A stretch of 51,392 nucleotides of DNA from Candidatus Pacearchaeota archaeon CG1_02_32_21 (GCA_001872185.1 MNVX01000036.1:1-51392); one strand, 5' to 3'. Shown: positions 13,540 to 44,486, counted from the stretch's first letter. Notes: generated from the letters alone by a model not told the origin. Program-made: numbers and translations.

Positions 13540-14472
13540 ATGACAAATTACAATCAGCTTGTTGAGAAAATATCTAAGTCATCTGGGCTTTCTGTTGAAG
13601 AAATTAATAGAATGGTCGAAACCAAATGCGCCAAATTATCTGGTCTAATAAGCAAAGAGGGAAGTGCCCAGATTGTAGCTTCTGAACTAGGAATTAGTTT
13701 TGATAAAGATAAGTTAAAGATTAATGAACTGATGTCTGGAATGAAGAAGGTGAATCTTATTGGCAAGGTAATAAGCATTGCTCCGATAAGGAACTTTACA
13801 ACTAAAAGCGGAGTTGAAAGCAAGGTTATGGCTATGACTCTTGCAGATGAAACAGGAAATGTCAGGACTGTTTTATGGGATACTAACCACATATCTTTAT
13901 TTGAAACTAATAAAATAAAAGAAGGAGAGGTTATTGAGATAAGCAATGGAAGTATAAGAAACGATGAACTTCATTTAGGCAGTTTTTCTGATATAAAGGT
14001 GAGTAAAGAACAGATAGCTAATGTGAAAACAGAGAGTTTTAGTCCTGAAAGAACTCTCGAATCTGTTAAAGCTGGTCAAAACATAAAGAATAGGGCATTT
14101 ATTGTACAGGTTTTTGAGCCAAGATTTTTTGAGATTTGCCCGCAGTGTAATAAAAAAGCTGTAAGTAATACATGTGTAGAACATGGCGTAATTGTTGCCC
14201 TGAAAAGAGCTTTACTTACTTTAGTGTTGGATGATGGCAGTGAAAATATGCGGGGAGTTTTATTTAGTGAAGGAATTAAAGGGCTTGGAATTGAAGATGG
14301 TGAGCTAGAAAATAAAGAATTGTTTGAAAAAAGAAAAAATGACCTGCTTGGAGAGGAATTTTTATTTGAGGGAAGTGTGAGGAGCAATAATGTTTTTAAT
14401 ACCAGCGAATTGATTATTAATAAAGTCAGTAAAGTTGAAATAGATCCTTTAATCGAGCAATTGAGAGTATAA
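13540..14472 (+). CDS. rpa: replication protein A-like ssDNA-binding protein (OB folds plus zinc finger)
   Basis: OB-fold signature VNLIGKVISIAPIRNFTTKSGVESKVMAMTLADETGNVRTVLWD and the Zn motif CPQCNKK...CVEHG. Confidence 0.7.
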   Translation: MTNYNQLVEKISKSSGLSVEEINRMVETKCAKLSGLISKEGSAQIVASELGISFDKDKLKINELMSGMKKVNLIGKVISIAPIRNFTTKSGVESKVMAMTLADETGNVRTVLWDTNHISLFETNKIKEGEVIEISNGSIRNDELHLGSFSDIKVSKEQIANVKTESFSPERTLESVKAGQNIKNRAFIVQVFEPRFFEICPQCNKKAVSNTCVEHGVIVALKRALLTLVLDDGSENMRGVLFSEGIKGLGIEDGELENKELFEKRKNDLLGEEFLFEGSVRSNNVFNTSELIINKVSKVEIDPLIEQLRV

Positions 14473-14573
14473 TTTGAAATAGATTTAGTACTGAAATAAT
14501 CTTTATATATAGTAATCTTTTGGAAAGATTAGACAAACCAGAGTTTTTATATAAATAAATTTTTTGAGATAAA

Positions 14574-15581
14574 ATGACAGACAAAGAAGAGGCAAAAAAA
14601 ATCAAAGGTGCAGTTGAAGAAGAAGCTAAGATAAGTGATCTTCCAGGAATAGGTGTAGCTGCAGTTGCCAAGCTTGAATCTGCAGGTATTTTTGATTTAA
14701 TGGGTGTTGCTACTTTATCACCTCCTGTCTTATCAGAATTGACTGGTATTGGAGAAGCTGTTTGTAGAAAAGCTATTCAGGCATCTAGAAAGATGCTAAA
14801 TCTTGGATTTATGGATGCCTTTGAGTATGGGAAAAAGAGAGAAGATATTAATTATATTCCTACTGGAAGCAAGAATATTGATAACCTCTTGGGGGGGAAA
14901 GGAGTTGAAAGCAAGGCCATTACTGAAGTTTTTGGTGCATTTGGCAGTGGAAAGACGCAGTTGGCATTATCTCTTGCAGTTAATGTACAGTTGCCTAAGG
15001 AAAAAGGAGGACCAAGTGGCAAAGCAGTTTATATTGATACAGAGGGAACATTCAGGCCTGAAAGAGTTAAACAATTTGCTGAAGGTATGGGAGCAAATCC
15101 TGAAAAAGTGTTAAAAAATATTTTTGTTGCAAGAGCTTTTAATAGCGATCACCAGATTCTTTTAGTTGAAAAGATAGGCGAGATGATTAAAAATGGCGAG
15201 CCAATAAAACTTGTTATAATAGATTCTTTAACAGCTCATTTCAGAGCAGAGTATGCTGGAAGAGGACAGCTAGCTGACAGACAGCAAAGACTTAACAAGT
15301 ATTTACATGATTTAATGAAACTGGCAGAGCAGAGAAATTTAGCTGTTTTTGTTACAAATCAGGTAATGGCTAATCCTGCAATGATGTTTGGAGACCCTAC
15401 AACTGCTATTGGTGGAAATATTGTTGGTCATGCTTCGACATATAGAATGTACTTAAGAAGAGGAAAGAAGGACACAAGAGTTGCCAAGCTTATTGATAGT
15501 CCTAATTTGCCAGATAACGAAACTGTGTTTATGGTTACAACTGATGGCTTGAAGGATGTTATTTTGAAGGGAGAGGATTAA
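14574..15581 (+). CDS. radA: DNA repair and recombination protein RadA
   Basis: N-terminal HhH region ([17 protein letters not shown]), Walker [10 protein letters not shown], and [14 protein letters not shown]. Confidence 0.95.
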
Positions 15582-15631
15582 CTAAATCTTTTTATATTAT
15601 TATCCTATTGTTTTTTTATAAGAGGTGAACT

Positions 15632-16855
15632 ATGGAGATTATTGCAGATTTACAAATACATTCTAAGTATGCAAGAGCAACTTCTAAAGATTTAAGCTTT
15701 GAAAATTTGGAGAAATATGCAAGGATGAAAGGCATTAATCTTCTTGGCGTTGGAGATTTTCAGCATCCGGAACATAGAGAAGAGATAACAAAGAAATTGA
15801 AAGAAGATGATAAAGGGATTTTATGGACAAAAACTGGATTTGCTTTTTTATGGCAGACTGAAATTAGTTTAATGTATTCTGAAAATGGAAAAAGAAGAGC
15901 TGTTCATTTGCTTGTTTTTGCACCAAATGGAAAAATTGCTGATAAAATAATCTTATATTTGGGGAGCAAGGGAAGATTAGATTATGATGGAAGGCCTATA
16001 TTTGGGATTACATGCAGAGATGCTGTTAAAGATTTAAAGGAAATAGATGATAGAATTGAAATAATTCCTGCACATTGCATGACTCCTTGGTTTGGCTTGT
16101 TTGGAAGCAAGTCTGGATTTGATTCCCTGAAAGAGTGTTTTGGAGAGCAGTTGGATAAAATACATGCAATAGAGTCTGGCATGTCTGCAGATCCCTCAAT
16201 GCTCTGGAGATTTGAAGAAGTGGCTAATGGCAAAGTAAGGGTTGTTAGTTTTAGTGATGCACATAGTTTTTGGCCATGGAGAATTGGAAGGGAGGCAACA
16301 ATATTTGATATTGAAGAGCTAAGTTATGATAATATAATAAAAGCTATAAGAACTGGACAGGGTTTAAAGGGAACAATTGAAACTCCTCCTGAATATGGAA
16401 GATATCACTGGGATGGGCATAGAAACTGTAATTTTTCATGTGGTCCTGAAGAAACGAAAAAATTAAATAGAATATGCCCTAAGTGCGGAGGTAAACTAAT
16501 TATTGGAGTTGAGTATAGGGTTGAAGAACTGGCTAAGAAAAATAAAGGATTTACCCCTAAAAATTCTGTGCAATTTCATAAGTTACTTCCTTTGCATGAG
16601 TTGCTTGTTTTACATACTGGTTCAGGGATTGCAAGTAAGGGAAACTGGGAAATGTATAATAGTTTAATTGAAAAGTTTGGAAATGAATTTAATATTTTGC
16701 TTAGGGTTAACAAGGAAGATTTAATTTCTAAAGAAGTTAAGCTAAAGCTTATTGATTTGATTATAAGGAATAGGGAAGGTAAAATAAAAATCAAGCCTGG
16801 ATATGACGGAGAGTATGGCGTTGCAATGCTTGAAGAGCAGAAGAAGCTGTTTTAA
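15632..16855 (+). CDS. PHP-domain endonuclease, EndoQ-like
   Basis: DLQIHSKYARATS at the N-terminus, PAHCMTPWFG, SFSDAHS, zinc ribbon CPKCGGKL and C-terminal PGYDGEYG, laid out as in archaeal endonuclease Q. Confidence 0.7.
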   Translation: MEIIADLQIHSKYARATSKDLSFENLEKYARMKGINLLGVGDFQHPEHREEITKKLKEDDKGILWTKTGFAFLWQTEISLMYSENGKRRAVHLLVFAPNGKIADKIILYLGSKGRLDYDGRPIFGITCRDAVKDLKEIDDRIEIIPAHCMTPWFGLFGSKSGFDSLKECFGEQLDKIHAIESGMSADPSMLWRFEEVANGKVRVVSFSDAHSFWPWRIGREATIFDIEELSYDNIIKAIRTGQGLKGTIETPPEYGRYHWDGHRNCNFSCGPEETKKLNRICPKCGGKLIIGVEYRVEELAKKNKGFTPKNSVQFHKLLPLHELLVLHTGSGIASKGNWEMYNSLIEKFGNEFNILLRVNKEDLISKEVKLKLIDLIIRNREGKIKIKPGYDGEYGVAMLEEQKKLF

Positions 16856-16877
16856 TTAAACCCCACAAATGAGATAG

Positions 16878-17012
16878 TTAACTATTTCTTTCTTTAACAA
16901 ACCTCTCCCTGAATTTCAAACCCGCAGGTTTTGTCTCTGAATTGCATTTTGGGCATTTGTCTTTAAATGTGTATGAATTACAGCTTTTGTTTGGGCATTT
17001 TTTTAATAACAT
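16878..17012 (-). CDS. nop10: Nop10-like zinc-ribbon protein (H/ACA RNP), 44 aa, not in ORF track
   Basis: MLLKKCPNKSCNSYTFKDKCPKCNSETKPAGLKFRERFVKERNS has two Cys knuckles. It lies 8 nt downstream of aIF2-alpha, the conserved archaeal eIF2a-nop10 order. Confidence 0.5.
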   Translation of the reverse strand: MLLKKCPNKSCNSYTFKDKCPKCNSETKPAGLKFRERFVKERNS

Positions 17013-28770: not shown

Positions 28771-28838
28771 ACTTCTTTATTTCTAAAAGGGTTTTTAAAT
28801 CTTTACAGTTCTTTTATTATGCAGTTATGCAAAGCTAT

Positions 28839-28974
28839 GGCCTTGTCGTCCAACGGCTAAGACACATCTTTGACGATGTGGGACAACCTATGGTTTTCCT
28901 GACACTACCTTTCCACTTTGAAAGAGAGTAACATCAAACTGGATGGGACCCAGGTTCAACTCCTGGCAGGGCCA
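28839..28974 (+). tRNA. tRNA-Val (anticodon GAC) with 64-nt canonical 37/38 intron (28876..28939)
   Basis: Exon 1 is 37 nt (GGCCTTG...CATCT-TTGACG); exon 2 is 35 nt (T-GGATG-GGAC-CCAGG-TTCAACT-CCTGG-CAGGGCC-A). BHB motif: outer helix CATCT/GGATG, central helix TTGA/TCAA, 3-nt bulges CGA and ACT, inner helix TGT/ACA. Confidence 0.75.
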
Positions 28975-29152
28975 TAAAAACCACCTCCGGGTTTTATAAT
29001 CCTGGACCCAGCCCTACATGATTGCAGGGCCATTTTTTATTATTTAATGACTCTTAATTATATTAGTTAGTTACTAACTTACTTAGTAACTTAATAAGAA
29101 ACATTTATATATTATTCCTATTTTAGTTGTATGTTTTAAAAGAGAAGCTCTG

Positions 29153-29287
29153 ATGAAAAAATATCTTTTGCTTATTGAGGATGAGAAATTGTGGGAAAGA
29201 TTTAAGGATTCTATTAGAAATGACATAAATAGTGAAATAATTGAACTAATCAGAAAAAAGATTAGCTCGGGAGGTAAAAAAGAATGA
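29153..29287 (+). CDS. small ribbon-helix-helix-like protein, 44 aa (not in ORF track)
   Basis: MKKYLLLIEDEKLWERFKDSIRNDINSEIIELIRKKISSGGKKE has a beta-strand then two helices, as in CopG/Arc folds. Its stop overlaps the next ATG (ATGA at 29284-29287). Confidence 0.4.
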   Translation: MKKYLLLIEDEKLWERFKDSIRNDINSEIIELIRKKISSGGKKE

Positions 29288-31224
29288 ATGATTTGAATAA
29301 TAAGGCTGGAAAAAAGGCAACTCGCACTTTGACTTTCAGTTTTAATGATAATCTTGTAAAGTCAAAGCGCTCACAAATTACCTTATTTGTTATTATAGCT
29401 ATTATTATTGTTGCTGCAGTAATAGGTATATTTGTTTTTAGAGATAAGTTATTTACTATTGGAGGTAGTAGCGAATTTCAAGAAGTTTATACTTATTTTG
29501 ATTCCTGTGTTGAGAGTGTTACTTTGGATGGAATTCAAATTGCCGGAAGCCAAGGAGGATATATAGAAATCCCTGAATTTGAACCCGGAAGCGAGTATGC
29601 TCCTTTTTCAAATCAGCTGGAGTTTTTGGGGCAACCTGTGCCGTATTGGTATTATATTTCCGGAAACGGGGTTGCTAAGGAGCAGATACCTTCAAAAAAA
29701 GAAATAGAAAAACAACTCAGAGAGTATATAGAAAAAAATATCGCTACCTGTGATTTTTCAGCTCTAAGAAATAAGGGTTATGAAATAAATGTTAGTGCTC
29801 CAAAAGCAGATGTTTCTATAAGCAAGAATGTTGTAGGAGTTAATGTTAATATGCCTCTTAGTGTGAGTAAAAATGAAAAATCAGAGATAAAATCAAGGCA
29901 TGATGTCAGTGTTTTCAGCAAATTAGGAAAATTTTATGATCTGGCAAATGAAATATACAATAAGGAAAAAGAAGAATCATTTTTAGAAAATTATTCAGTA
30001 GATGCTCTTTATAATTATGCCCCTGTTACAGATATTGAAATATCTTGTGCCCCTAAATTCTGGAATGCTGAGGATGTTGCAAATGACCTTAAGTCCGGGT
30101 TAAGTGCAAATATTGGAGCGATTAAATTAAACGGGGAGTATTATTCTTTGAGCAAAAAAGAAAACAATTATTTTGTTTTGCCTATTGAAACAGATGAAAG
30201 CGCCAGTTTTGTTTATGATACAAGATGGCCGAGCAGAGTTGAAATCTGGCCAGCGGAAAATAACCTTTTAATTGCACAACCAGTTGGTTTAGAAGAAGGT
30301 TTAGGAATATTAGGATTTTGTTATATACCTTATCATTTTGTTTATGATGTTTATTATCCAGTACTTGTACAAATCTATGATGATAATGAAATATTCCAAT
30401 TTCCTGTAGCTGTTATTATTGATAAAAGCAATCCAAGGAAATCTTTAGAAACTACAGATAGTGCTATTGATGAAATAGGCATATGTAACTACCCAACAAC
30501 TTCAATAGATGTTTATACATTTGATTCTCAGTTACAACCAGTTGAAGCTGATATTGAGTTTCAATGCTTTAGTGATTTGTGCAATATTGGAAGTACAGTT
30601 GTTGAAGGAACTGATGCACACATACAAGAAACTTTCCCTTCGTGCATTAATGGAAAGATAACTGCAAAAGCAGAAGGTTATGTCAGCCAAGATTATATTA
30701 TATCAACAAATGCCCCTGGTGTTGCGAATATTTTAATAGACAAGCTTTACGATTTAGATGTAGAAGTTGTTGCTGGAGGTCTGGATGTTAAAGACAGGAA
30801 AGGACAGGCTTTGATAAATTTCCAGGGAGAAAGATATTCTACCAGCTTGTTTTATCCAGAGCAAACAAGCATTAAGCTAGCTGAAGGATTTTATAATGTA
30901 AGTGTACAGGTATTTTCAGAAAGCTCTTTAACGATTCCTGCTAGTACCTCAAGTAATTGTGTTCAAGTGCCAAAGCCAGGAATATTTGGATTTTTTGGAT
31001 CAATAAGTGAACAGTGTTTTAGTGTTGATATCCCTTCCCAGAATTTGGGAAGCGCCTTAAGTGCTGGCGGTAAAAGCAGTGAATTTATTTTGGAAACTAA
31101 CTTAAAAAATTCTAATAACATGAAGATTAGTGTTCCGAACTTGCCTTCGGTTACGAGCTTGGATCAGTTACAGGCTAATTATCAGTTAATAGACTATCAA
31201 AATATTGCTTTGGAGTTCACATGA
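29284..31224 (+). CDS. 646-aa N-terminally anchored extracellular protein of unknown function
   Basis: Single N-terminal hydrophobic helix after KSKRS|QITLFVIIAIIIVAAVIGIFVF, a class III signal-like layout. No recognisable domain. ATGA overlap with the giant ORF. Confidence 0.6.
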   Translation: MNDLNNKAGKKATRTLTFSFNDNLVKSKRSQITLFVIIAIIIVAAVIGIFVFRDKLFTIGGSSEFQEVYTYFDSCVESVTLDGIQIAGSQGGYIEIPEFEPGSEYAPFSNQLEFLGQPVPYWYYISGNGVAKEQIPSKKEIEKQLREYIEKNIATCDFSALRNKGYEINVSAPKADVSISKNVVGVNVNMPLSVSKNEKSEIKSRHDVSVFSKLGKFYDLANEIYNKEKEESFLENYSVDALYNYAPVTDIEISCAPKFWNAEDVANDLKSGLSANIGAIKLNGEYYSLSKKENNYFVLPIETDESASFVYDTRWPSRVEIWPAENNLLIAQPVGLEEGLGILGFCYIPYHFVYDVYYPVLVQIYDDNEIFQFPVAVIIDKSNPRKSLETTDSAIDEIGICNYPTTSIDVYTFDSQLQPVEADIEFQCFSDLCNIGSTVVEGTDAHIQETFPSCINGKITAKAEGYVSQDYIISTNAPGVANILIDKLYDLDVEVVAGGLDVKDRKGQALINFQGERYSTSLFYPEQTSIKLAEGFYNVSVQVFSESSLTIPASTSSNCVQVPKPGIFGFFGSISEQCFSVDIPSQNLGSALSAGGKSSEFILETNLKNSNNMKISVPNLPSVTSLDQLQANYQLIDYQNIALEFT

Positions 31225-34200
31225 GAATAATTTTTTTGAAAAAGATTAGACAAAGCCAGGAAATGAAAAATTTAGCTGTAATTTTAATTTTTGGAATTTT
31301 AATTAATTTGAATTTTGTTTTTGCGCAGAATTTTGGAGGAAGCGGCACAATGGGACAAAGTTTTTCTTCATATGGAAGCGCCAGTTTTACAAATGTTCAG
31401 TATTTCAGTCCTGGTTATTTTCCAGGTGCTAGTTCTGGACTTGGAGCTTATAGCGGGGTTTCAATAGAAGAATTCAATGAGGTATGTAGAAACAGACAGG
31501 ATTTTGTTATTCAGATAGCTCCTGGAAGTTGCACACCAGCTGTTGTAAGAAGTGATTTATTAGCAGAGCAAAATGTACCTGTTTTTTGCCAGTTAACTGC
31601 TACTCAGGTAAATCCTCTGATAAATACCCAAAATATAAGGAGCATAAGACTAGTCAGTAACGGAAATGTTTCCCAAGATATTATTGGAGTTAGTTATTAC
31701 AGGCCACAGAGAGAAATATTTGCTAAAAAAGACAGTAATGGGTTTTTGAGTTTCAGCAATATTGGATATGCAATAATAATATTAAAAAGACAGCCAAATG
31801 AGAACTTACAACCAGACTTTATATACGGCAATTTAACTGCTTATTTGAGTTATGGCACCTCCGGACAGTTAGGAGCACAGTTAAATGAAAAATTGATTCC
31901 TGTACTAAATGATGAAGATTGGAATTCTTATTACCAAGAGTATTCTTTCCTTGACGGAAGGGGATTTTTTAGAGTAGAAGATTTATCTGGAGATAGGGCA
32001 AAAATAAGTGTTTATCGTGATGCTAATACAAAAGTTGATTCTTTTATAATTGAAAAAGGGCAAAAAAGCAATGAAAGATATTTAGCCGGAGGATATTGTA
32101 ATGCAGGATATAATATTGAATTTTTAGATAGTGTTCAAACCCAGGAGAAAGCAAGTATTTTATTAGATGGGGATGAGTATGAGGTTTTTGAGGGAGGAAA
32201 GTTTGGAGATAATTGTGCAGTAAGAAAATTATATGATACAGGTTTTGGCACTGGTAAAGTTGATGTAAAGTGCCTTGGAACTAAAGATTTCTCTCTTGAA
32301 ATTAAACATAAACCAGTGAAATTAAACTTTGACAGTTCAGACAAAAATTTTGAAATCGGGGAAAAATTATATGCAACTGAAAATAGTAGTGCATATCTTG
32401 GAGCGATCAACAAGAAGGTTAGTGAAGGCGGAAAATTTTTTATTGTTTTAGTTGATGCTAAGGAGTTTACAAACAGTCTTAAGGGAAATATAAATAAATT
32501 TAGTTCTGAAATTGCCTTAGGTACAGAAGAAAATGTTGCAAAGGAAAAATATCTTAAGGATAATACAATAGCAGTGGTGTATAAGGGAAATAAAGGAAAC
32601 ATTGGAGGCAAGGAAGTTAGTTTTATTGATTTCACAGATATTGAGAATGTAGAAACTCAAAGTGCTGAGTTTGAAAAATATTTTGGGGCATCTGTTGATT
32701 CTTATAAAAATTTAGAAGAGCAGTATGGAGAGTATGATTATCCAGAAGATACAACTCTTCCAGATCAAGCTAAGTATAACAAGTACGGTGAAGTTGCTGT
32801 TTCTCGAGCAACTGATCTAGCTAAAACAAGAGGGGAGGTTGGAACTGAGATGGAATTTGCAAAAATAGGTGAGGATAATTATGGCCTTTTGTTAAGCGAT
32901 AAACTTTCCTCAATTGAATTTTTTAATTATCAGGATGCCAGTTATGAGTTTGAAATAGATGGAATTACTCATAGAATATCTCTGGAAAAGATAACTAGTG
33001 TTGATTTAGATAAAATTAAGGTTATTATTTCTGTTAATGGAGATAAAAAAGTATTACATAGATTTGGAGAGTATCTTATTCCTCCAGATGGTACAAAAAG
33101 CATTACATTAAAATCATTTGATGACGATTCTGTTAGTTTGGAAGCTGATTGCGGCAGTAAAACTACAGAAACAATTTCTCTTGGTAAAAGAGCACCAGTT
33201 TGTAGTATGGATATTTATGTTAAAGAAATTAAAACAGAAAAATTGGCTAAGTTTAGAATAACGCCTGTGCAAAGAACTAGTGATGGAGTTGCTAATTTAA
33301 GTTATGGTATTGGAGTTGAAAAAAGAGCCTTTCCTTTAAGTCCTGAAAAATCTCTCGAGAGGATAAACAGGCTAAATGAAAGCATAGAAAAGTGGAAGAA
33401 TATTAATGAAAATCTTGGTAAACTTGTTAAGGCTGGAAAGGCGGCATGTTTTGGAACAAGTGCTGCCCTTCAGGTTAAAAATTTATTATCTGGTATGGGT
33501 GGTAAAGCAATTGCCAGAGAAGTTGTAATGAAAAACGATGGCGGTTGGGATAGCATTTGTCAAGCAGAAGTTGCAGAAGGAAAATATTCTAGCCTAGACG
33601 CATGTTTTAGGTCAAATGCTGATAAAATTGAGGAAGATGTCAGTTCAGTTACCAATATTGTTAAAGAGCAAGATGCTGAAAATAAGGAAATAGATAATGC
33701 AAATAAAATTGAAGGATCTGGCATGTTTTCTAATGGAATTGACGGAGATGAAGCTTACACGGATTATCTTTCATCAATTAAATCAAGATATTCTAGTTCA
33801 GATAGTATTGTTAAAAATGAAAAAGGAGATAAACAAATAAATATTGGAGAGGTAGTGTCTGGATTAGAATCTGGAAGCGCCAGTAGGGAAGATTTAAGAG
33901 AAATAGATTTGCATATGAGAATATTAAAAGAAAGTGACAGTGATTCACTTAAAGCAATTGCAGAAAAATCTCTTTATGATAAACTACAGCCTATTCAGCA
34001 AGAGTCTTTAGATAACAAAGATAAAAGCAGTTATGTTTCCAATCTTGAAGCTAAAGGGGTTGTAAATGTAGGTAATGTTGAGGTAATTTCTTCTAATAAG
34101 AGATCTAAGATAGGAGAATATAATGGGGAGGTTACTTCTGAAGCTATTGGCTCTATTGTTAAAGGTTCTAATATAAAACCAATTATTTTTGATGGAAAGA

Positions 34201-37064
34201 AATATCTGCTTAAACTAGATTCTGTTGACGATACGAAGTTTACAATTAGCAGGGTAGATGATGTGCCTCAGGTATTTGATGAAAATGGTAATCTAATTGG
34301 TGATAAAGAAGAAGCTGAATTAGTTGCAAGTTATTTTACTCAGTTTGTTAAGTATAATACTGATAGTTATAGAAATGGATATGATAGTCCTTTAGTTAGA
34401 TATTATGAGCATGACCCTTACAAAGGAATGCCAGCAATTGTTCCTTTTGATACCCAGAATGGCTGGTATGCTGGAACTAAGCAGACTCTTGCTACTTTTA
34501 ATAATATAGCTTCATATGATGAAAGCGGAAGAATATCTAGCTTTTGGTTATGCAATGTTGGAACCAATCATAGGGAAGAGTTCACAACAGGATTTGGAGA
34601 TGATATTTGCCAGCAGTTTAATCTTAATACTGGTCAGCCATTAGATCAATTTCCAGGATTAAATGAAGAAGAGGCAGTGAAACTTGTTAAAAATGCTATT
34701 CAATCTTTAGAACAAGCTTCTCAACAATATAGTACAGGAGTTCGTAAGGTAAAAATTCTTGGTAAAACTTATGATGTTGGAACCCCAGCTGTTTCAACAC
34801 CTAGCGCCCAGTGTCAGGATTTCATGAGCCCTAAGGATTGCCAGTTGATGTTTAATGTTTGTGATCCTGTTATTTGTCCAAGTAGCAGATGTAATCTTGG
34901 AGGAAAATATCAAGTAGATGATGTTGTACAAACAGGAATTGTTGGAAGTATTTTAATGTGTTTACCAAATGCAAAAGAGGGAATTGTTGTTCCGATTTGT
35001 TTAACAGGAGTAAATGCCGGTATTGAGAACTTTGTTTCAATACTTGAAGCTTCGAGAGATTGTTTGCAGGAGAGTGTAGACAGTGGAACATATGTAGGAA
35101 TATGCGACGAAATTACTGCTGTTTATAAGTGTGAATTTTTCTGGAACCAGGTTTCTCCGGCATTAAATGTTATGCTTCCGAAATTACTTGAGAGAGTTTC
35201 TGGACAGGGAGTCAGAGGTGGTGGAGAGTATGCAGGTGTAAGCGCTGCCTGGCAAAATATGCAGAACTCAATTGATTATTTTAAGAATCAATATAGCATA
35301 AATGCACTTAAGGCGTTTAGAGTTCGTTCTACTCAAGAAGTTGGAACTCCCATATGTAAGGCATTTGTATCTGCAAGATTTGCTAATAAATTTAGTTCTT
35401 TAATAGAACCAGACTCTCCTTATCAGTTTAGCGCATGGTTTGATGAAATTCTTTTTACAACTGCTACAACTCCAAGTTTAAGCCAGTATAAAGTATTTTA
35501 TCATATCTATGCTGGTAATGATCAGGGCATTTATTATAGTGTATATTTGAAAGAGCCGACTGGAAGTTCATTTATTCAGTCAACAGGAGTAGTTGTTGTA
35601 GATACAGGATTTGTTGGAAGAGGAGAGTACAATAGTCAGGCTAAAGATTTCACAGCCCCTTCTGGATTTAAACAACTTTGTGTAAGAATAAATGGAGAAG
35701 AAAAGTGCGGGTTTAAGCAAGTAAGCACAAGTTTTGCTGTTAACTATGTTAGGGATAAATATGTACAAGATCAGTTAAATCAGACTAATATTAAATCAGA
35801 GAGAGAATGTATTTCTGGTTCTCCAGGTGCTTTAGCTTTGGTCAATCCTAACTTAGAATCAGGTGTTGAAGATGCTACACTTCCTCAAATTTATGAAAGA
35901 GGAATTGTAAGAGTTTGTTCAAGTGGAAATCCTGGAAGTGCAGTTGATCCTTCAAGGTGGGTTGAAGTAGGGTATTGTGATGATAAAAGTATTAGCTGCT
36001 GGTTAGACAGAGAGAGTGTTGACAGAGCTATTAGTTCTGAAAACATTGGCGTAAAAAATCAGACAAAGGCTGATTTGAATGCTTTAGCAGATAGGATTGC
36101 TGAAAGAGATAAAACAGGATTGTTGATAGAAGATTCTGGTGGAAATATTATCTTTGAGGATTTTGAAAAAGAGATAGACTCTTTGTCATCTTCAAGCCTT
36201 AGTTTTTCAGATGCAGAAACTAATTCAAAAATTATACTTGCAAAAATAAATGAAGTTGAAGATAAATACCAGTTATTGGATAAAGATTACGCAAGATTAT
36301 TTTTTGATAGGGCATGGACTTATGAAATGCTTGCCAGAAAATCCCCTTATCCTGAAAAAGAGGTTCCTGTTAGTGAACCTAATGAAACTGTGGATAGTGG
36401 TGCAGGTGGTAGTGAAGGTGAAGAAACTCCAACAGATCATGGAACAGCTGGAGAGACAGGTGTTTTAAGCAGCGAGGTTCCTGCAATTCTTCAGGGAATT
36501 TTTATTGAAGCTTCTGATGCTACAGGTACTCCTGCTTCGCTTATAGCAGCTATTTCCTACCAAGAGTGTGGAGATTTGTGGAATGATGCTAAAAGGGATG
36601 AACCAAAAATTAAGAGTTTAATAGAAAATAATGGAATTCCAAGAGTTGGTGATTTATGTAATTCAAATAACGGATATAATGTTTTTGGTCCAATGCAGTT
36701 TCAGATAGGAATTGACTATCTTGCTGAAAATGGTTTTGATAATAGAATAAGAACAATTAATCCAAAAGGAATAGCATTGCCAAGAGAGGGGACATGGGAG
36801 GACTATGATGATAGTGCAGCTTCTTTATTGAAGGTAAGTGTAGATGAAATAAGTCCGTTAGTTATTAGACACGCAGTTTATGCTGCTGCTATTAAACTTA
36901 ACAAAGATGCTGGTGATCCTTCTGTTTGGACAGATGAAGATATTAGAAATGCTGCAAAAGGATATTTTGGAGCTTGTGATGATACTCAGGTTATTGGAGG
37001 AGATGAAGTTGTTGTGCATTATTGTGATGATATTATTTCTAAGTATAATAAATATAAGGCTTAG
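31221..37064 (+). CDS. 1947-aa secreted giant protein with Cys-rich core and C-terminal lytic-transglycosylase (SLT/lysozyme-like) domain
   Basis: Uninterrupted 5.8-kb ORF. Signal peptide MKNLAVILIFGILINLNFVFA|QN (alternative ATG 31263). C-terminal motifs LIAAISYQECG, FGPMQFQ and AAKGYFG parallel the SLT motifs ES, GLMQ and AYNxG. Confidence 0.7.
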   Translation: MRIIFLKKIRQSQEMKNLAVILIFGILINLNFVFAQNFGGSGTMGQSFSSYGSASFTNVQYFSPGYFPGASSGLGAYSGVSIEEFNEVCRNRQDFVIQIAPGSCTPAVVRSDLLAEQNVPVFCQLTATQVNPLINTQNIRSIRLVSNGNVSQDIIGVSYYRPQREIFAKKDSNGFLSFSNIGYAIIILKRQPNENLQPDFIYGNLTAYLSYGTSGQLGAQLNEKLIPVLNDEDWNSYYQEYSFLDGRGFFRVEDLSGDRAKISVYRDANTKVDSFIIEKGQKSNERYLAGGYCNAGYNIEFLDSVQTQEKASILLDGDEYEVFEGGKFGDNCAVRKLYDTGFGTGKVDVKCLGTKDFSLEIKHKPVKLNFDSSDKNFEIGEKLYATENSSAYLGAINKKVSEGGKFFIVLVDAKEFTNSLKGNINKFSSEIALGTEENVAKEKYLKDNTIAVVYKGNKGNIGGKEVSFIDFTDIENVETQSAEFEKYFGASVDSYKNLEEQYGEYDYPEDTTLPDQAKYNKYGEVAVSRATDLAKTRGEVGTEMEFAKIGEDNYGLLLSDKLSSIEFFNYQDASYEFEIDGITHRISLEKITSVDLDKIKVIISVNGDKKVLHRFGEYLIPPDGTKSITLKSFDDDSVSLEADCGSKTTETISLGKRAPVCSMDIYVKEIKTEKLAKFRITPVQRTSDGVANLSYGIGVEKRAFPLSPEKSLERINRLNESIEKWKNINENLGKLVKAGKAACFGTSAALQVKNLLSGMGGKAIAREVVMKNDGGWDSICQAEVAEGKYSSLDACFRSNADKIEEDVSSVTNIVKEQDAENKEIDNANKIEGSGMFSNGIDGDEAYTDYLSSIKSRYSSSDSIVKNEKGDKQINIGEVVSGLESGSASREDLREIDLHMRILKESDSDSLKAIAEKSLYDKLQPIQQESLDNKDKSSYVSNLEAKGVVNVGNVEVISSNKRSKIGEYNGEVTSEAIGSIVKGSNIKPIIFDGKKYLLKLDSVDDTKFTISRVDDVPQVFDENGNLIGDKEEAELVASYFTQFVKYNTDSYRNGYDSPLVRYYEHDPYKGMPAIVPFDTQNGWYAGTKQTLATFNNIASYDESGRISSFWLCNVGTNHREEFTTGFGDDICQQFNLNTGQPLDQFPGLNEEEAVKLVKNAIQSLEQASQQYSTGVRKVKILGKTYDVGTPAVSTPSAQCQDFMSPKDCQLMFNVCDPVICPSSRCNLGGKYQVDDVVQTGIVGSILMCLPNAKEGIVVPICLTGVNAGIENFVSILEASRDCLQESVDSGTYVGICDEITAVYKCEFFWNQVSPALNVMLPKLLERVSGQGVRGGGEYAGVSAAWQNMQNSIDYFKNQYSINALKAFRVRSTQEVGTPICKAFVSARFANKFSSLIEPDSPYQFSAWFDEILFTTATTPSLSQYKVFYHIYAGNDQGIYYSVYLKEPTGSSFIQSTGVVVVDTGFVGRGEYNSQAKDFTAPSGFKQLCVRINGEEKCGFKQVSTSFAVNYVRDKYVQDQLNQTNIKSERECISGSPGALALVNPNLESGVEDATLPQIYERGIVRVCSSGNPGSAVDPSRWVEVGYCDDKSISCWLDRESVDRAISSENIGVKNQTKADLNALADRIAERDKTGLLIEDSGGNIIFEDFEKEIDSLSSSSLSFSDAETNSKIILAKINEVEDKYQLLDKDYARLFFDRAWTYEMLARKSPYPEKEVPVSEPNETVDSGAGGSEGEETPTDHGTAGETGVLSSEVPAILQGIFIEASDATGTPASLIAAISYQECGDLWNDAKRDEPKIKSLIENNGIPRVGDLCNSNNGYNVFGPMQFQIGIDYLAENGFDNRIRTINPKGIALPREGTWEDYDDSAASLLKVSVDEISPLVIRHAVYAAAIKLNKDAGDPSVWTDEDIRNAAKGYFGACDDTQVIGGDEVVVHYCDDIISKYNKYKA

Positions 37065-37108: not shown

Positions 37109-37192
37109 TGCGAGAGACAGGATTCGAACCTGTGAACTCACTAAGAGACGAGATTTTGAGTCTCGCGCGTTTGACCACTTCGCTACCCTCGC
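37109..37192 (-). tRNA. tRNA-Leu (anticodon CAA), class II with long variable arm
   Basis: Reverse complement: GCGAGGG...CGAGA-CTCAAAA-TCTCG, variable arm TCTCTTAGTGAGTTC, ACAGG-TTCGAAT-CCTGT, CTCTCGC-A. Confidence 0.9.
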
Positions 37193-37944
37193 TTATATAA
37201 ATTATATGGGTTAAGTTTGTTTTTAAGGATATCTTTCCTTTGACTTATTGTTGTGTGTGGTGGGCAAAATCCAAACCTTTTCCATACATCATATCTTGTT
37301 ATGTGTTTTAGATTTTCTGGGCTAATTTCTTCCATAAATCTTTTTATATTGGGTATTCTATTTATTTCTAATATATTTACATCATGGTTGTTTCTCCTGT
37401 TACTGTAACCTCTTTTTATGGTCCTTGTCACGCATCTATAATTTAACTCTTTTAGTATTTTAGATGTTTCATTAATTAATAAATGAGAAATACTTGTTAG
37501 CCTAATTCTGATTTTTGTATGATAATATGAATTAAATCTATCCGCATATTTTGTATAATCTTTTTGGCAAGATATACTTCCATCGGTATCAAATAAACCT
37601 CTTATGAAAGACCTCTTTACCTCTTCATTTGAATTTTTTATCCAACTAGGTATTTTAGCTGTAAGAGCTTTATTTCCCTTTGGCAAACCAAAATTTAATA
37701 ATTTCTGAATATTTTCTTTTCCATGGATTGAAACTCCATAAACTTTCCAATATGGGAATTCTTTTGTTTCCACCTTTTTAATAGTTTTACTTATTAATTT
37801 TGATAAATATAAGTCGTAATATTCTTTGTCCTCTATAGGGTCTCCTGCTATGAAACAACTTTTCTCGTTTGATTGTATCCATCCGTCACCAATTATTGCT
37901 CCACATAACTCAGCCACTATTTTTTTGTCTTGAATCTCACCCAT
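37183..37944 (-). CDS. free-standing double-motif LAGLIDADG homing endonuclease
   Basis: Two LAGLIDADG motifs: AELCGAIIGDGW and SFIRGLFDTDGSIS. The last 10 nt, including the stop TAG, overlap the 5' end of tRNA-Leu. Confidence 0.75.
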   Translation of the reverse strand: MGEIQDKKIVAELCGAIIGDGWIQSNEKSCFIAGDPIEDKEYYDLYLSKLISKTIKKVETKEFPYWKVYGVSIHGKENIQKLLNFGLPKGNKALTAKIPSWIKNSNEEVKRSFIRGLFDTDGSISCQKDYTKYADRFNSYYHTKIRIRLTSISHLLINETSKILKELNYRCVTRTIKRGYSNRRNNHDVNILEINRIPNIKRFMEEISPENLKHITRYDVWKRFGFCPPHTTISQRKDILKNKLNPYNLYKRG

Positions 37945-43349: not shown

Positions 43350-43421
43350 TATAATTTATTTTGAAAGTTTTGCCATACACTTTATAAATTTAGCTTGTTT
43401 TGCATTAAAGAAAAGAATAAA

Positions 43422-44486
43422 ATGAAAATACTTTTTGGAGTTTTAGATTGGGGGTTAGGACATGCTACAAGAGACATTCCACTTATAGAAGGTCTGCTTG
43501 GTATAGGACATAGCGTTGATATTATTTCAAATGGAAGAGCACTTAAAATTCTGAAGGAAAAGTTTGGAGGAAGATGTAACTATTATGATATTTCTGGCCT
43601 TTATGTCCCACAGATGTATTCTAGCTATTTTATTTTAGCATGTGCCATGAATTTGCATAAAATGGCTGCTTCTATTCTTAAATCTAGGAAAAAAATAAAT
43701 AAAATCATAAAAAATGGGAAGTACAATTGGATTATAAGCGACAACAGGTTTGAACTTTATGATAGACCATCAAATTCTATTATGATTATACATACTCTTA
43801 ACTTTAATAGTCATTTATTAAAATACCCTATTACAAAGCTTATGGAATTTATTACAAAACCATATGGAATACTTATTGTCCCTGACTTTCCAAAAAAAGG
43901 TATTGCAGGGATTATGGGTCAGAATAAGAATATACTTAACAAGGAAGTGCACTATATAGGTGTTCTTTCTCAAATAAGAAAAAAACATTATAAAAAGAAT
44001 ATAGATTATTTCATTTCTCTTTCTGGTCCAGAGCCACAGAGAACTATTCTTGAGAATAAACTTATAAAACAATGCCACAAGTTGAAAGGGAATATTGTTA
44101 TAGCAGGGGCTAATCCTGATGTAAATCAAACTAAAACAATTGGAAAAAATATCAAACTTTATAGTTTTTTAAACACTCAGTATCAAGAAGAAATGATGAA
44201 CAGGGCAAAATTTATCATTACAAGAAGCGGATTTACAACTACTGCAAATATGATTGAACTTGGGAAAAAAAGAGCTTTACTTATTCCTATGCCTGGCCAA
44301 CCTGAACAGGAATTTCTTGCTGATTTATATGAGAGAAAAAAATACTTTCACCACGTGCATCAGGATGATATTAATTTAGAAAAAGATATTAAAGTTGCAA
44401 TGAAAGGATTTAGAGGATTTAGACCTCAGTGGAGAACTAAAAGATCTGTCAAGAAATTTTTAAAAATCATAGAAAAGAAGAGATAA
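43422..44486 (+). CDS. glycosyltransferase (GT1/GT28-like, MurG/UDP-glycosyltransferase fold)
   Basis: N-terminus MKILFGVLDWGLGHATRDIPLIEGLLGIGHSVDIIS and C-terminal TRSGFTTTANMIELGKKRALLIPMPGQPEQ are typical of this fold. ATG 43422; the track start 43395 is TTG. Confidence 0.6.
   Translation: MKILFGVLDWGLGHATRDIPLIEGLLGIGHSVDIISNGRALKILKEKFGGRCNYYDISGLYVPQMYSSYFILACAMNLHKMAASILKSRKKINKIIKNGKYNWIISDNRFELYDRPSNSIMIIHTLNFNSHLLKYPITKLMEFITKPYGILIVPDFPKKGIAGIMGQNKNILNKEVHYIGVLSQIRKKHYKKNIDYFISLSGPEPQRTILENKLIKQCHKLKGNIVIAGANPDVNQTKTIGKNIKLYSFLNTQYQEEMMNRAKFIITRSGFTTTANMIELGKKRALLIPMPGQPEQEFLADLYERKKYFHHVHQDDINLEKDIKVAMKGFRGFRPQWRTKRSVKKFLKIIEKKR

Follow-up and report, generated by a model that had tools for sequence, protein, structure and literature searches.

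Pacearchaeota and Woesearchaeota are abundant, uncultured archaea with a minimal metabolism. We analysed a 51,392-nucleotide contig of Candidatus Pacearchaeota archaeon CG1_02_32_21 (GCA_001872185.1, MNVX01000036.1), called the window below, in which positions 29,153 to 37,064 hold a module of three co-directional open reading frames (ORFs) that encode a protein of 44 amino acids (aa), a 646-aa protein with a predicted N-terminal anchor, and a giant protein of 1947 aa predicted to be secreted. The second and third genes each begin within the end of the preceding one, through 4-nucleotide (nt) ATGA start/stop overlaps at 29284-29287 and 31221-31224, and 4-nt overlaps are common among related loci. 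The two large proteins are the hypothetical proteins AUJ62_03745 and AUJ62_03750 (identical sequences), the giant matching PIN95357.1 and OIO40998.1, which are likewise annotated as hypothetical, at 100% identity, and the 44-aa ORF has no NCBI accession and is missing from the NCBI annotation. Judged by their conservation, all three are genuine genes rather than chance ORFs, because the giant protein has at least 434 homologs in a word-indexed search, the 646-aa protein has at least 1128 (42-79% identity), and 30 orthologs of the 44-aa protein are 61-88% identical across loci, above either large protein, with 14 invariant positions. The overlapping ATG of the giant gene may not be the start in use, because alignments of all close homologs begin at residue 15 and the ATG at 31263 (Met15) has AGGA 4 nt ahead of it. 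An earlier note on this DNA, made from the sequence alone, had described the three ORFs, both overlaps, the bounding tRNA genes and the flanking genes, and all of these were found where it had placed them.

Gene order and chromosomal position

The giant gene directly follows the gene of the 646-aa protein in 84 of 85 loci, the sole exception ending at a contig edge. When the genomic context was taken for five giant homologs (in ascending order 36, 41, 43, 45 and 80% identical) at loci L001-L005, the module lay upstream of TFB, rpS8e, LSM and RNase Z in all five relatives, with rpS3Ae and rpL44e on the upstream side in four (L001-L004) and a small ORF ahead of the anchor gene in four (absent in L005). 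tRNA-Val(gac) precedes the module in L001, L002 and L003, and tRNA-Leu(caa) follows it in L002 and L003. In the window the upstream flank consists of NDK, rpS3Ae and rpL44e, and the downstream flank of a LAGLIDADG_3 ORF, TFB and rpS8e; the tRNA-Val(GAC) gene was missed by default ARAGORN because of its intron, and was detected by Rfam and aragorn -i. When one genome was scanned for each GTDB species, 513 species genomes contained the 646-aa protein, and the labels of these 513 records are almost all Pacearchaeota, Woesearchaeota, Nanoarchaeota or simply 'archaeon'.

These data bear directly on the proposal of the earlier note that the module is an island acquired at a tRNA locus. Such an insertion would fit the tRNA genes on both sides of the module, the adjoining LAGLIDADG ORF, a partial copy of the tRNA-Val 3' end 58 nt downstream of tRNA-Val, and a tetranucleotide deviation that reaches z=3 at 33-37 kb, inside the giant gene. 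However, the position and the tRNA genes are unchanged in distant relatives, including those whose giant protein is 36-45% identical, so the module is not an insert at this site; the island reading fails on this ground, the earlier note itself having held that a position shared by relatives would mark the module as core. The tRNA-Val fragment sits upstream rather than on both sides of the module, which is not bracketed by att repeats either; no integrase domain was found in its flanks, and no relative of the 646-aa family was found among 2.9 million viral contigs scanned. Compositional comparison with the flanks, which the note had also proposed, agrees: the GC content of the module genes is 0.31-0.37 against a mean of ~0.32 for this low-GC archaeal contig, their GC content at third codon positions (0.20-0.27) lies within or next to the range of the flanking housekeeping genes (0.18-0.26), and the sole compositional signal, the tetranucleotide deviation, comes from one gene with unusual amino-acid content. 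We therefore consider acquisition as an island extremely unlikely. As read from synteny, the module is a chromosomal, vertically inherited operon, with tRNA-Val as its ancestral upstream neighbour rather than an integration site and tRNA-Leu as its ancestral downstream neighbour, and it is not evidence of horizontal acquisition.

The partial copy of tRNA-Val is 29 nt long (29004-29032, corresponding to 28946-28974 of the real gene) and keeps GGACCCAG...GCAGGGCCA at the same internal spacing with a differing middle; a short hairpin (AAAACC/GGTTTT) precedes it. A duplicated tRNA 3' end of similar kind occurs in locus L028, and a related trailer in L003. The copy may be what is left of an old att site, or else an element for processing or termination. 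Two loci with discordant labels, L015 (DAOTCN010000002.1, 'Candidatus Paceibacterota bacterium') and L013 (DYHK01000005.1, 'Candidatus Aenigmarchaeum sp.'), carry the module with an anchor protein 51-53% identical, and are probably taxonomic mislabels of Pacearchaeota-like bins.

The anchor and the giant protein

The N-terminus of the 646-aa protein reads KSKRS and, beyond the predicted cleavage site, QITLFVIIAIIIVAAVIGIFVF. Position -1 is Gly (26), Ser (14) or Ala (13) in 53 of 53 homologs, positions -2 and -3 are K/R, position +1 is Gln in 51 of 53, and the sequence after this Gln reads [VI][TAS][IVL]F[IV]II-A. On this pattern ([KR][KR]-[G/S/A] before the cut, Q-hydrophobic after it), the N-terminus is an archaeal class III (prepilin) signal peptide and not a generic anchor; in methanogens, Gln conserved at +1 characterises the prepilin substrates of EppA type (PMC4371748). 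The ectodomain carries ten Cys, all invariant, as would suit a protein with disulfide bonds outside the cell. The Sulfolobales bindosome is a precedent for large globular proteins that follow class III signals, and further cases are now being reported (bioRxiv 10.64898/2026.04.22.720090). The 646-aa protein has no sequence match in Pfam, NCBIfam, PHROGs or PDB, the last also searched with the family profile, and profile-profile comparison found no relation between its family and that of the giant protein. A type IV prepilin peptidase gene of the Peptidase_A24 family in the same window is likely to encode its processing enzyme.

The single N-terminal anchor with a pilin-like layout, resembling that of the genes at 18-4866, had been recognised in the earlier note and holds up. 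The seven consecutive ORFs at 18-4866 have prepilin-like N-termini ([KR][GA] plus a hydrophobic helix) and no Pfam match, and an AI-2E transporter gene and the Peptidase_A24 gene come after them. The leader of the 646-aa protein is long, at 30 residues; its extra part, R.L.F....N.L.KSKRS, is kept in a subset of homologs, and the sequence of others starts directly with M.KRGQ. This would mean that alternative starts are used or that the extension is functional.

The giant protein begins with a Sec-type signal peptide ending in FVFA before QN (hydrophobic segment at residues 14-40) and has no further segment of transmembrane grade. Conservation is high at residues 85-360 and 690-810, highest at 1050-1600, low between these regions, and nil after ~1730. 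Nineteen of its 34 Cys fall within residues 1111-1593, and ~20 Cys are invariant within 1050-1600. Core residues 1041-1640, the query of an exhaustive phmmer search through 1.84 billion representatives of 50%-identity clusters, gave 1071 matches at E<=1e-3, of which 929 reached E<=1e-30. The 150 best of the 1071, which are those listed, are 51-88% identical and are giant proteins or fragments thereof, and among the matches listed the core sits at ~position 1000-1700 of the full-length proteins. By this search the giant family is closed and lineage-restricted, comprising ~1,000 sequence clusters from genomes labelled Pace- or Woesearchaeota.

Most of the giant protein resembles nothing recognisable. 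Neither the protein nor its fragments matched Pfam, NCBIfam or PHROGs above noise, and neither the protein nor its family profile matched PDB sequences. AlphaFold2 modelled residues 40-1040 with a mean predicted local distance difference test score (pLDDT) of 77, as arrays of beta-sandwiches and long helical hairpins, and residues 1041-1947 with a mean pLDDT of 63, the beta-sandwiches at 1400-1600 and the helical tail domain being well modelled. Foldseek found nothing at E<=1e-3 for the first model (TM-scores <0.15), including its conserved N-terminal beta-rich domain, and for the second nothing at E<=1e-3 in PDB or BFVD, the best PDB matches being weak and to generic Ig-like E-set and ApaG-like structures, and those in BFVD noise. 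The body of ~1,700 residues, as far as sequence and predicted fold can tell, has no recognisable relative. The signal peptide, the long region lacking known domains and the Cys-rich core are thus as the earlier note had described them, and the Pfam and Foldseek comparisons it had suggested turned up no well-described family, S-layer families included, that covers the protein.

Beyond the body, the tail varies between species. We cut 57 species-level giant proteins after a conserved CWLD motif and scanned the tails against Pfam, which yielded SLT in 12 tails, Phage_lysozyme2 (PF18013) in 4, Amidase_3 in 3, DUF2272 and Glucosaminidase in 2 each, and GH3, Peptidase_M15_4, Peptidase_M23 and SLT_2 in 1 each. 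Eight of the nine are established families of enzymes that act on bacterial murein; the ninth, DUF2272, is uncharacterised. The scan also gave a tenth family, GXGXG, in 1 tail, which has no connection with murein. In at least 30 tails, that of the present copy among them, no match to the nine was seen, and single-linkage clustering merged most tail types through a shared stalk. The breakpoint lies in an acidic Gly/Thr/Pro-rich linker: the closest distinct relative of the protein, P0003, is 82% identical over residues 15-1730 and 4-32% identical from within the linker onward, and its tail carries PF18013 where the present copy carries a different domain. In these alignments the tail exchange is recent and sharp.

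The C-terminal domain of the present copy (residues 1750-1947) occurs in only 4 distinct sequences and is modelled as mainly helical with a pLDDT of ~80-90. It bears the putative motifs QEC (1781-1783), GPMQ (1823-1826) and AAKGYFG (~1911-1917). Comparison by hhalign with the SLT tails of homologs gave a weak match (P=2e-4, probability 46%), in which these motifs are in register with ES, GLMQ and AYNxG of the SLT tails, with a 24-residue insertion; on the same scale, SLT compared with PF18013 gives P=7e-5. The domain is a candidate divergent lytic-transglycosylase-like domain on this weak profile match and the motifs, with Glu1782 as the candidate catalytic residue. Neither the tail nor its profile matched a PDB sequence. 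Assignment of the tail to the PF18013 type was tried and rejected, the profile comparison giving no relation (P=0.6).

Table 1. Positions of the features discussed, counted from the first nucleotide of the window
Feature	Coordinates	Strand	Remarks
tRNA-Val(GAC)	28838..28975	+	64-nt intron at position 39; Rfam RF00005, 38.6 bits; aragorn -i
Operator-like element	29063..29103	.	inverted repeat abutting the TATA box
Putative archaeal TATA box	29104..29111	+	TTTATATA, preceded by AAGAAACA; 49 nt before small ORF start
Small ORF	29153..29287	+	44 aa; first gene of module
Anchor gene	29284..31224	+	646 aa; second gene of module
Leader of 646-aa protein	29284..29373		residues 1-30; predicted cleavage between S30 and Q31
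Hydrophobic helix of 646-aa protein	29374..29439		residues 31-52
Ectodomain of 646-aa protein			~590 aa; 10 Cys
Giant gene	31221..37064	+	1947 aa; third gene of module
N-terminal beta-rich domain, conserved	31473..32300	+	residues ~85-360; invariant C89, C104, C123 and RSD110-112; AlphaFold2 pLDDT ~80-90
Most conserved core	34368..36020	+	residues ~1050-1600; block conservation 0.63-0.82
Cys-rich, moderately hydrophobic stretch of core	34794..35420	+	residues 1192-1400; AlphaFold2 pLDDT <45
Ig-like beta-sandwiches of core			residues 1400-1600; well modelled by AlphaFold2
Acidic Gly/Thr/Pro-rich flexible linker	36348..36467	+	residues ~1710-1749; low pLDDT; tail-exchange breakpoint
C-terminal domain	36468..37061	+	residues 1750-1947; candidate lytic transglycosylase of divergent SLT/GH23-like type
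Putative catalytic Glu1782	36564..36566		codon
tRNA-Leu(CAA)	37109..37192	-	downstream neighbour of module
Type IV prepilin peptidase, Peptidase_A24 (PF01478)	6347..7252	+	E=3e-14

Further genes lie near the module in relatives. In L003, the closest distinct relative, two extra genes stand right after tRNA-Leu, downstream of the giant gene (14253-16996); they encode a 273-aa protein and a 641-aa Peptidase_M23 protein, a further murein endopeptidase beside the module. Other very large proteins of surface type (Laminin_G_3/Toxin_R_bind_N, dockerin-like, Big_13) are encoded in relatives at distances of up to 10 kb from the module (L002, 23701-26321; L005, 1-810 and 19134-22442). In the window itself, the LAGLIDADG_3 ORF at 37183-37944 (minus strand) is free-standing and overlaps the tRNA-Leu 5' end by 10 nt, and another LAGLIDADG_3 ORF lies upstream of the module in the distant relative L005 (5964-6944), which suggests that homing-endonuclease genes visit the module locus repeatedly. 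At 43395-44486 the window encodes a glycosyltransferase with a Glyco_tran_28_C (MurG/Alg13-like) C-terminal domain, also present in L003; in this murein-less archaeon it probably serves protein or lipid glycosylation rather than murein synthesis.

The small protein and the operator-like element

The 44-aa protein, which begins with MKKYLLLIEDEKLWERFK, lacks a signal peptide and is predicted to be cytoplasmic; in 40 of 85 loci its ORF immediately precedes the anchor gene. Its size and hydrophobic pattern (KKYLLLI / DEKLWERFKDSI / INSEIIELIRKKI) fit, by eye, a strand-helix-helix arrangement, which makes a ribbon-helix-helix (RHH) fold plausible. Ahead of it, an inverted repeat with two 15-nt arms (29063-29077 and 29083-29097, 87% complementary, 5-nt spacer) abuts a putative TATA box; the sequence AAGAAAcATTTATATA is kept across loci, at a median TATA-to-start distance of 50 nt. 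Over 35 aligned loci the upstream non-coding block reads TTAcTTA.TaACTaAcTTAcTtAgTAA.TTA.TAAGAAAcATTTATATA. Within this block T(T/A)A(C/G) occurs about 10 times, a 4-nt periodicity on top of the inverted repeat that is unusual for a protein-binding site.

The element and the small ORF occur together without exception. A position weight matrix trained on the 41 nt that precede the TATA box was run over both strands of every locus; the 99.99th percentile of the background was 15. The matrix scored 14-52 in 41 of 41 loci with the small ORF, each time a short way ahead of that ORF and including loci not used for training, and below 10 in all 45 loci that lack it (0/45); no second site was found within the window. 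In loci without the small ORF, tRNA-Val often abuts the anchor gene. A sigma-70 promoter scan, which is not applicable to an archaeon, gave no enrichment. The strict co-occurrence (41/41 against 0/45) suggests that the 44-aa protein is an autoregulator and the inverted repeat its operator, which it would bind.

Proposed function and comparison with known systems

Taking these observations together, we propose that the operon builds a cell-surface complex that contacts and cuts bacterial murein, which we regard as the best explanation of the whole and hold with slightly better than even confidence. In such a scheme, transcription would start from the promoter with its TATA box at 29104, flanked by the operator, which the 44-aa protein probably binds, and translational coupling would join the synthesis of the anchor and giant proteins. 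The 646-aa protein would be exported through its class III signal and cut between Ser30 and Gln31 by the A24 peptidase of the same window, and its N-terminal helix would then hold it in the membrane or in a pilus-like fibre, as in the bindosome proteins of Sulfolobales. The giant protein, which would leave the cell through Sec and has no predicted anchor of its own, would be retained by the 646-aa protein. Its body, with beta-sandwich arrays, helical hairpins and a Cys-rich hydrophobic core, may present a murein-hydrolase 'warhead' on the flexible linker, the warhead of the present copy being the putative transglycosylase-like domain with Glu1782, and the apparatus would contact the murein wall of a bacterium and cut it locally for attachment, access or scavenging. 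The Sec signal, the class III signal and the murein-hydrolase tails of relatives support the cell-surface or host-interaction apparatus that the earlier note had suggested.

Several observations weigh against this interpretation. No pilus-assembly ATPase or platform gene lies within the window, and the evidence for a physical link between the 646-aa and giant proteins consists of their adjacency and translational coupling. The core, at 51-65% identity across the 1071 cluster representatives, is unusually conserved for a host-contact protein under arms-race pressure. A recognisable hydrolase occurs in at most 27 of the 57 tails (the sum of the family counts, some tails carrying two domains), and 11 of the 57, with fewer than 300 aa, have room for little beyond the stalk. 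Since hydrolase tails are missing in many members, murein cleavage itself is not the conserved function of the body; its main role must be a different one, in adhesion, as a scaffold or in membrane interaction. The isolated tail of the present copy has no Pfam match even at E<=10, SLT (PF01464) included, and no lysozyme or SLT structure appeared in the top 50 Foldseek matches of the whole 907-residue model; for the 'lysozyme-like' C-terminus of the earlier note, the profile match and the motifs in register speak weakly in its favour, and the Pfam, PDB and Foldseek searches do not. Neither the 44-aa protein nor its 30-sequence profile matched Pfam, NCBIfam, PHROG or PDB, or any RHH family, and the co-occurrence of the small ORF with the element could instead reflect joint inheritance of one DNA segment. 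The small protein that the earlier note had likened to RHH regulators is encoded by a real, conserved gene, and the likeness has indirect support from the co-occurring DNA element but none from sequence.

The main rival is an S-layer-like two-component envelope scaffold, analogous to SlaA/SlaB, in which hydrolase tails would be accessory in some species. The pair occurs universally, in synteny with ribosomal-protein genes, even where the hydrolase tail is missing; as with slaA and slaB (PMC5744192), a single operon encodes both a large secreted protein and a smaller partner anchored in the membrane, and the N-terminal half of the giant protein is rich in beta-sandwiches. S-layer proteins, however, usually diverge fast, whereas this core is strongly conserved family-wide, with ~30 invariant Cys. 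Moreover, no S-layer Pfam family was matched, no SlaA or S-layer structure appeared in the top 50 Foldseek matches, and searches of Pfam, NCBIfam and PDB gave no S-layer similarity either. The anchor has a prepilin signal rather than a C-terminal helix, and a dedicated repressor-like element is present in about half of the species. Since conservation is unusually high and S-layer similarity is lacking, we rate the scaffold below the murein-contacting complex and consider it rather unlikely.

The variety of tails, covering many murein bonds (glycan, amidase, endopeptidase, carboxypeptidase), would also suit a free or loosely bound scavenging enzyme that digests the murein of dead bacteria for amino sugars and amino acids, with no host contact. 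Pacearchaeota have been reported to encode murein-peptide carboxypeptidases, and feeding on the peptidoglycan of dead cells has been suggested, which favours this view (PMC11537232). A strictly conserved, non-enzymatic body of ~1,700 residues and a pilin-like partner are, however, hard to justify for a digestive enzyme, and many family members have no recognisable hydrolase, which makes scavenging of this kind, in our judgement, very unlikely.

If the complex does contact and cut bacterial murein, the body could be a new kind of envelope-breaching machine on a pilin-like subunit, whose conserved segments insert into or open the partner membrane after the murein is cut. The two most conserved segments (residues ~735-760 and ~1192-1400) are Gly/Ala/Cys-rich, moderately hydrophobic and of low AlphaFold2 confidence. 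We consider this extension quite unlikely; if true, the body would be a conduit into bacteria, and the module an apparatus of archaeon-on-bacterium parasitism that has no characterised counterpart.

More broadly, the module is a prime candidate for how Pacearchaeota engage bacteria and makes contact between DPANN archaea and bacteria experimentally addressable: the tail type could read out the kind of bacterial wall that each lineage deals with, and the conserved core is a target for antibodies, cryo-electron tomography labelling and structural work.

Each part of the module is reminiscent of a different known system. SPEARE of Nanohaloarchaeota is reportedly a giant extracellular multi-domain protein, said to breach the partner envelope, with a different domain set and a much larger size. 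Archaeovorins of Omnitrophota, compared here by description only, are likewise giant extracellular proteins with a proposed role in envelope breach, sometimes carrying SLT and encoded near class III signal-peptide genes, but their domain sets differ and they are much larger (bioRxiv 10.1101/2023.11.21.568195). Phage tail-associated lysins and tape-measure proteins share with the giant protein a large structural body and an exchangeable C-terminal murein hydrolase, and relatives of the giant even carry the PF18013 'phage tail lysozyme'. Unlike them, the giant protein is chromosomal, has a Sec signal, is absent from the viral contigs, and its body shows no sequence or fold similarity to phage proteins (PHROGs, BFVD). 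SlaA and SlaB of Sulfolobales are, like the module, encoded by adjacent genes for a large outer and a smaller membrane-anchored protein (PMC5744192). The module shows no detected homology to them, puts the anchor gene ahead of the gene for the large protein, has an N-terminal anchor of prepilin type and is far more conserved. The bindosome (GlcS/AraS with BasEF; bioRxiv 10.64898/2026.04.22.720090) resembles the 646-aa protein in placing a large ectodomain behind a prepilin leader and helix processed by an A24 peptidase, as predicted here. By contrast, bindosome proteins are sugar-binding and linked to ABC transporters, and the 646-aa protein matches no solute-binding family, is coupled to the giant protein and has no adjacent BasEF-like genes.

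The closest precedent comes from genome surveys. Castelle et al. (2021) noted "large murein transglycosylase-like proteins" (PMC8204110), a point that Vigneron et al. (2022, PMC9723730) and others repeat, and it has been suggested that large proteins with a murein-transglycosylase domain, specific to Pace- and Woesearchaeota, attach to bacterial walls and break them down (PMC8204110, PMC9723730). As these passages describe them, those proteins and the present family agree in lineage, in size (~1,700-3,800 aa), in their predicted extracellular location and in carrying SLT in many members, and the giant family meets the DPANN murein-transglycosylase-like description (~2-3 kaa, Pace- and Woesearchaeota only, extracellular, hydrolase in members). 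The two are very probably the same family, although identity with fam00969 is unconfirmed by accession, a search of the Castelle 2021 supplements for fam00969 and for the locus tags having returned neither. The giant family is therefore known from surveys but uncharacterised, and the novelty claimed in the earlier note is weakened, since the family had already been pointed out (PMC8204110, PMC9723730). In the relevant passages the accounts centre on the SLT domain, whereas here the conserved unit is the body with its pilin-like partner, and the hydrolase, where there is one, forms an exchangeable tail whose type varies over nine Pfam families, the present copy escaping the Pfam SLT model. The same passages do not mention the prepilin-type partner, the syntenic operon, the regulator and operator, the breadth and sharpness of tail exchange, or the lack of a known fold in the body. 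With these, a survey remark on transglycosylase-like proteins becomes a defined unit comprising a putative promoter and operator, a candidate regulator, an anchor with a predicted cleavage site, and a giant protein with a linker, a tail and a candidate Glu.

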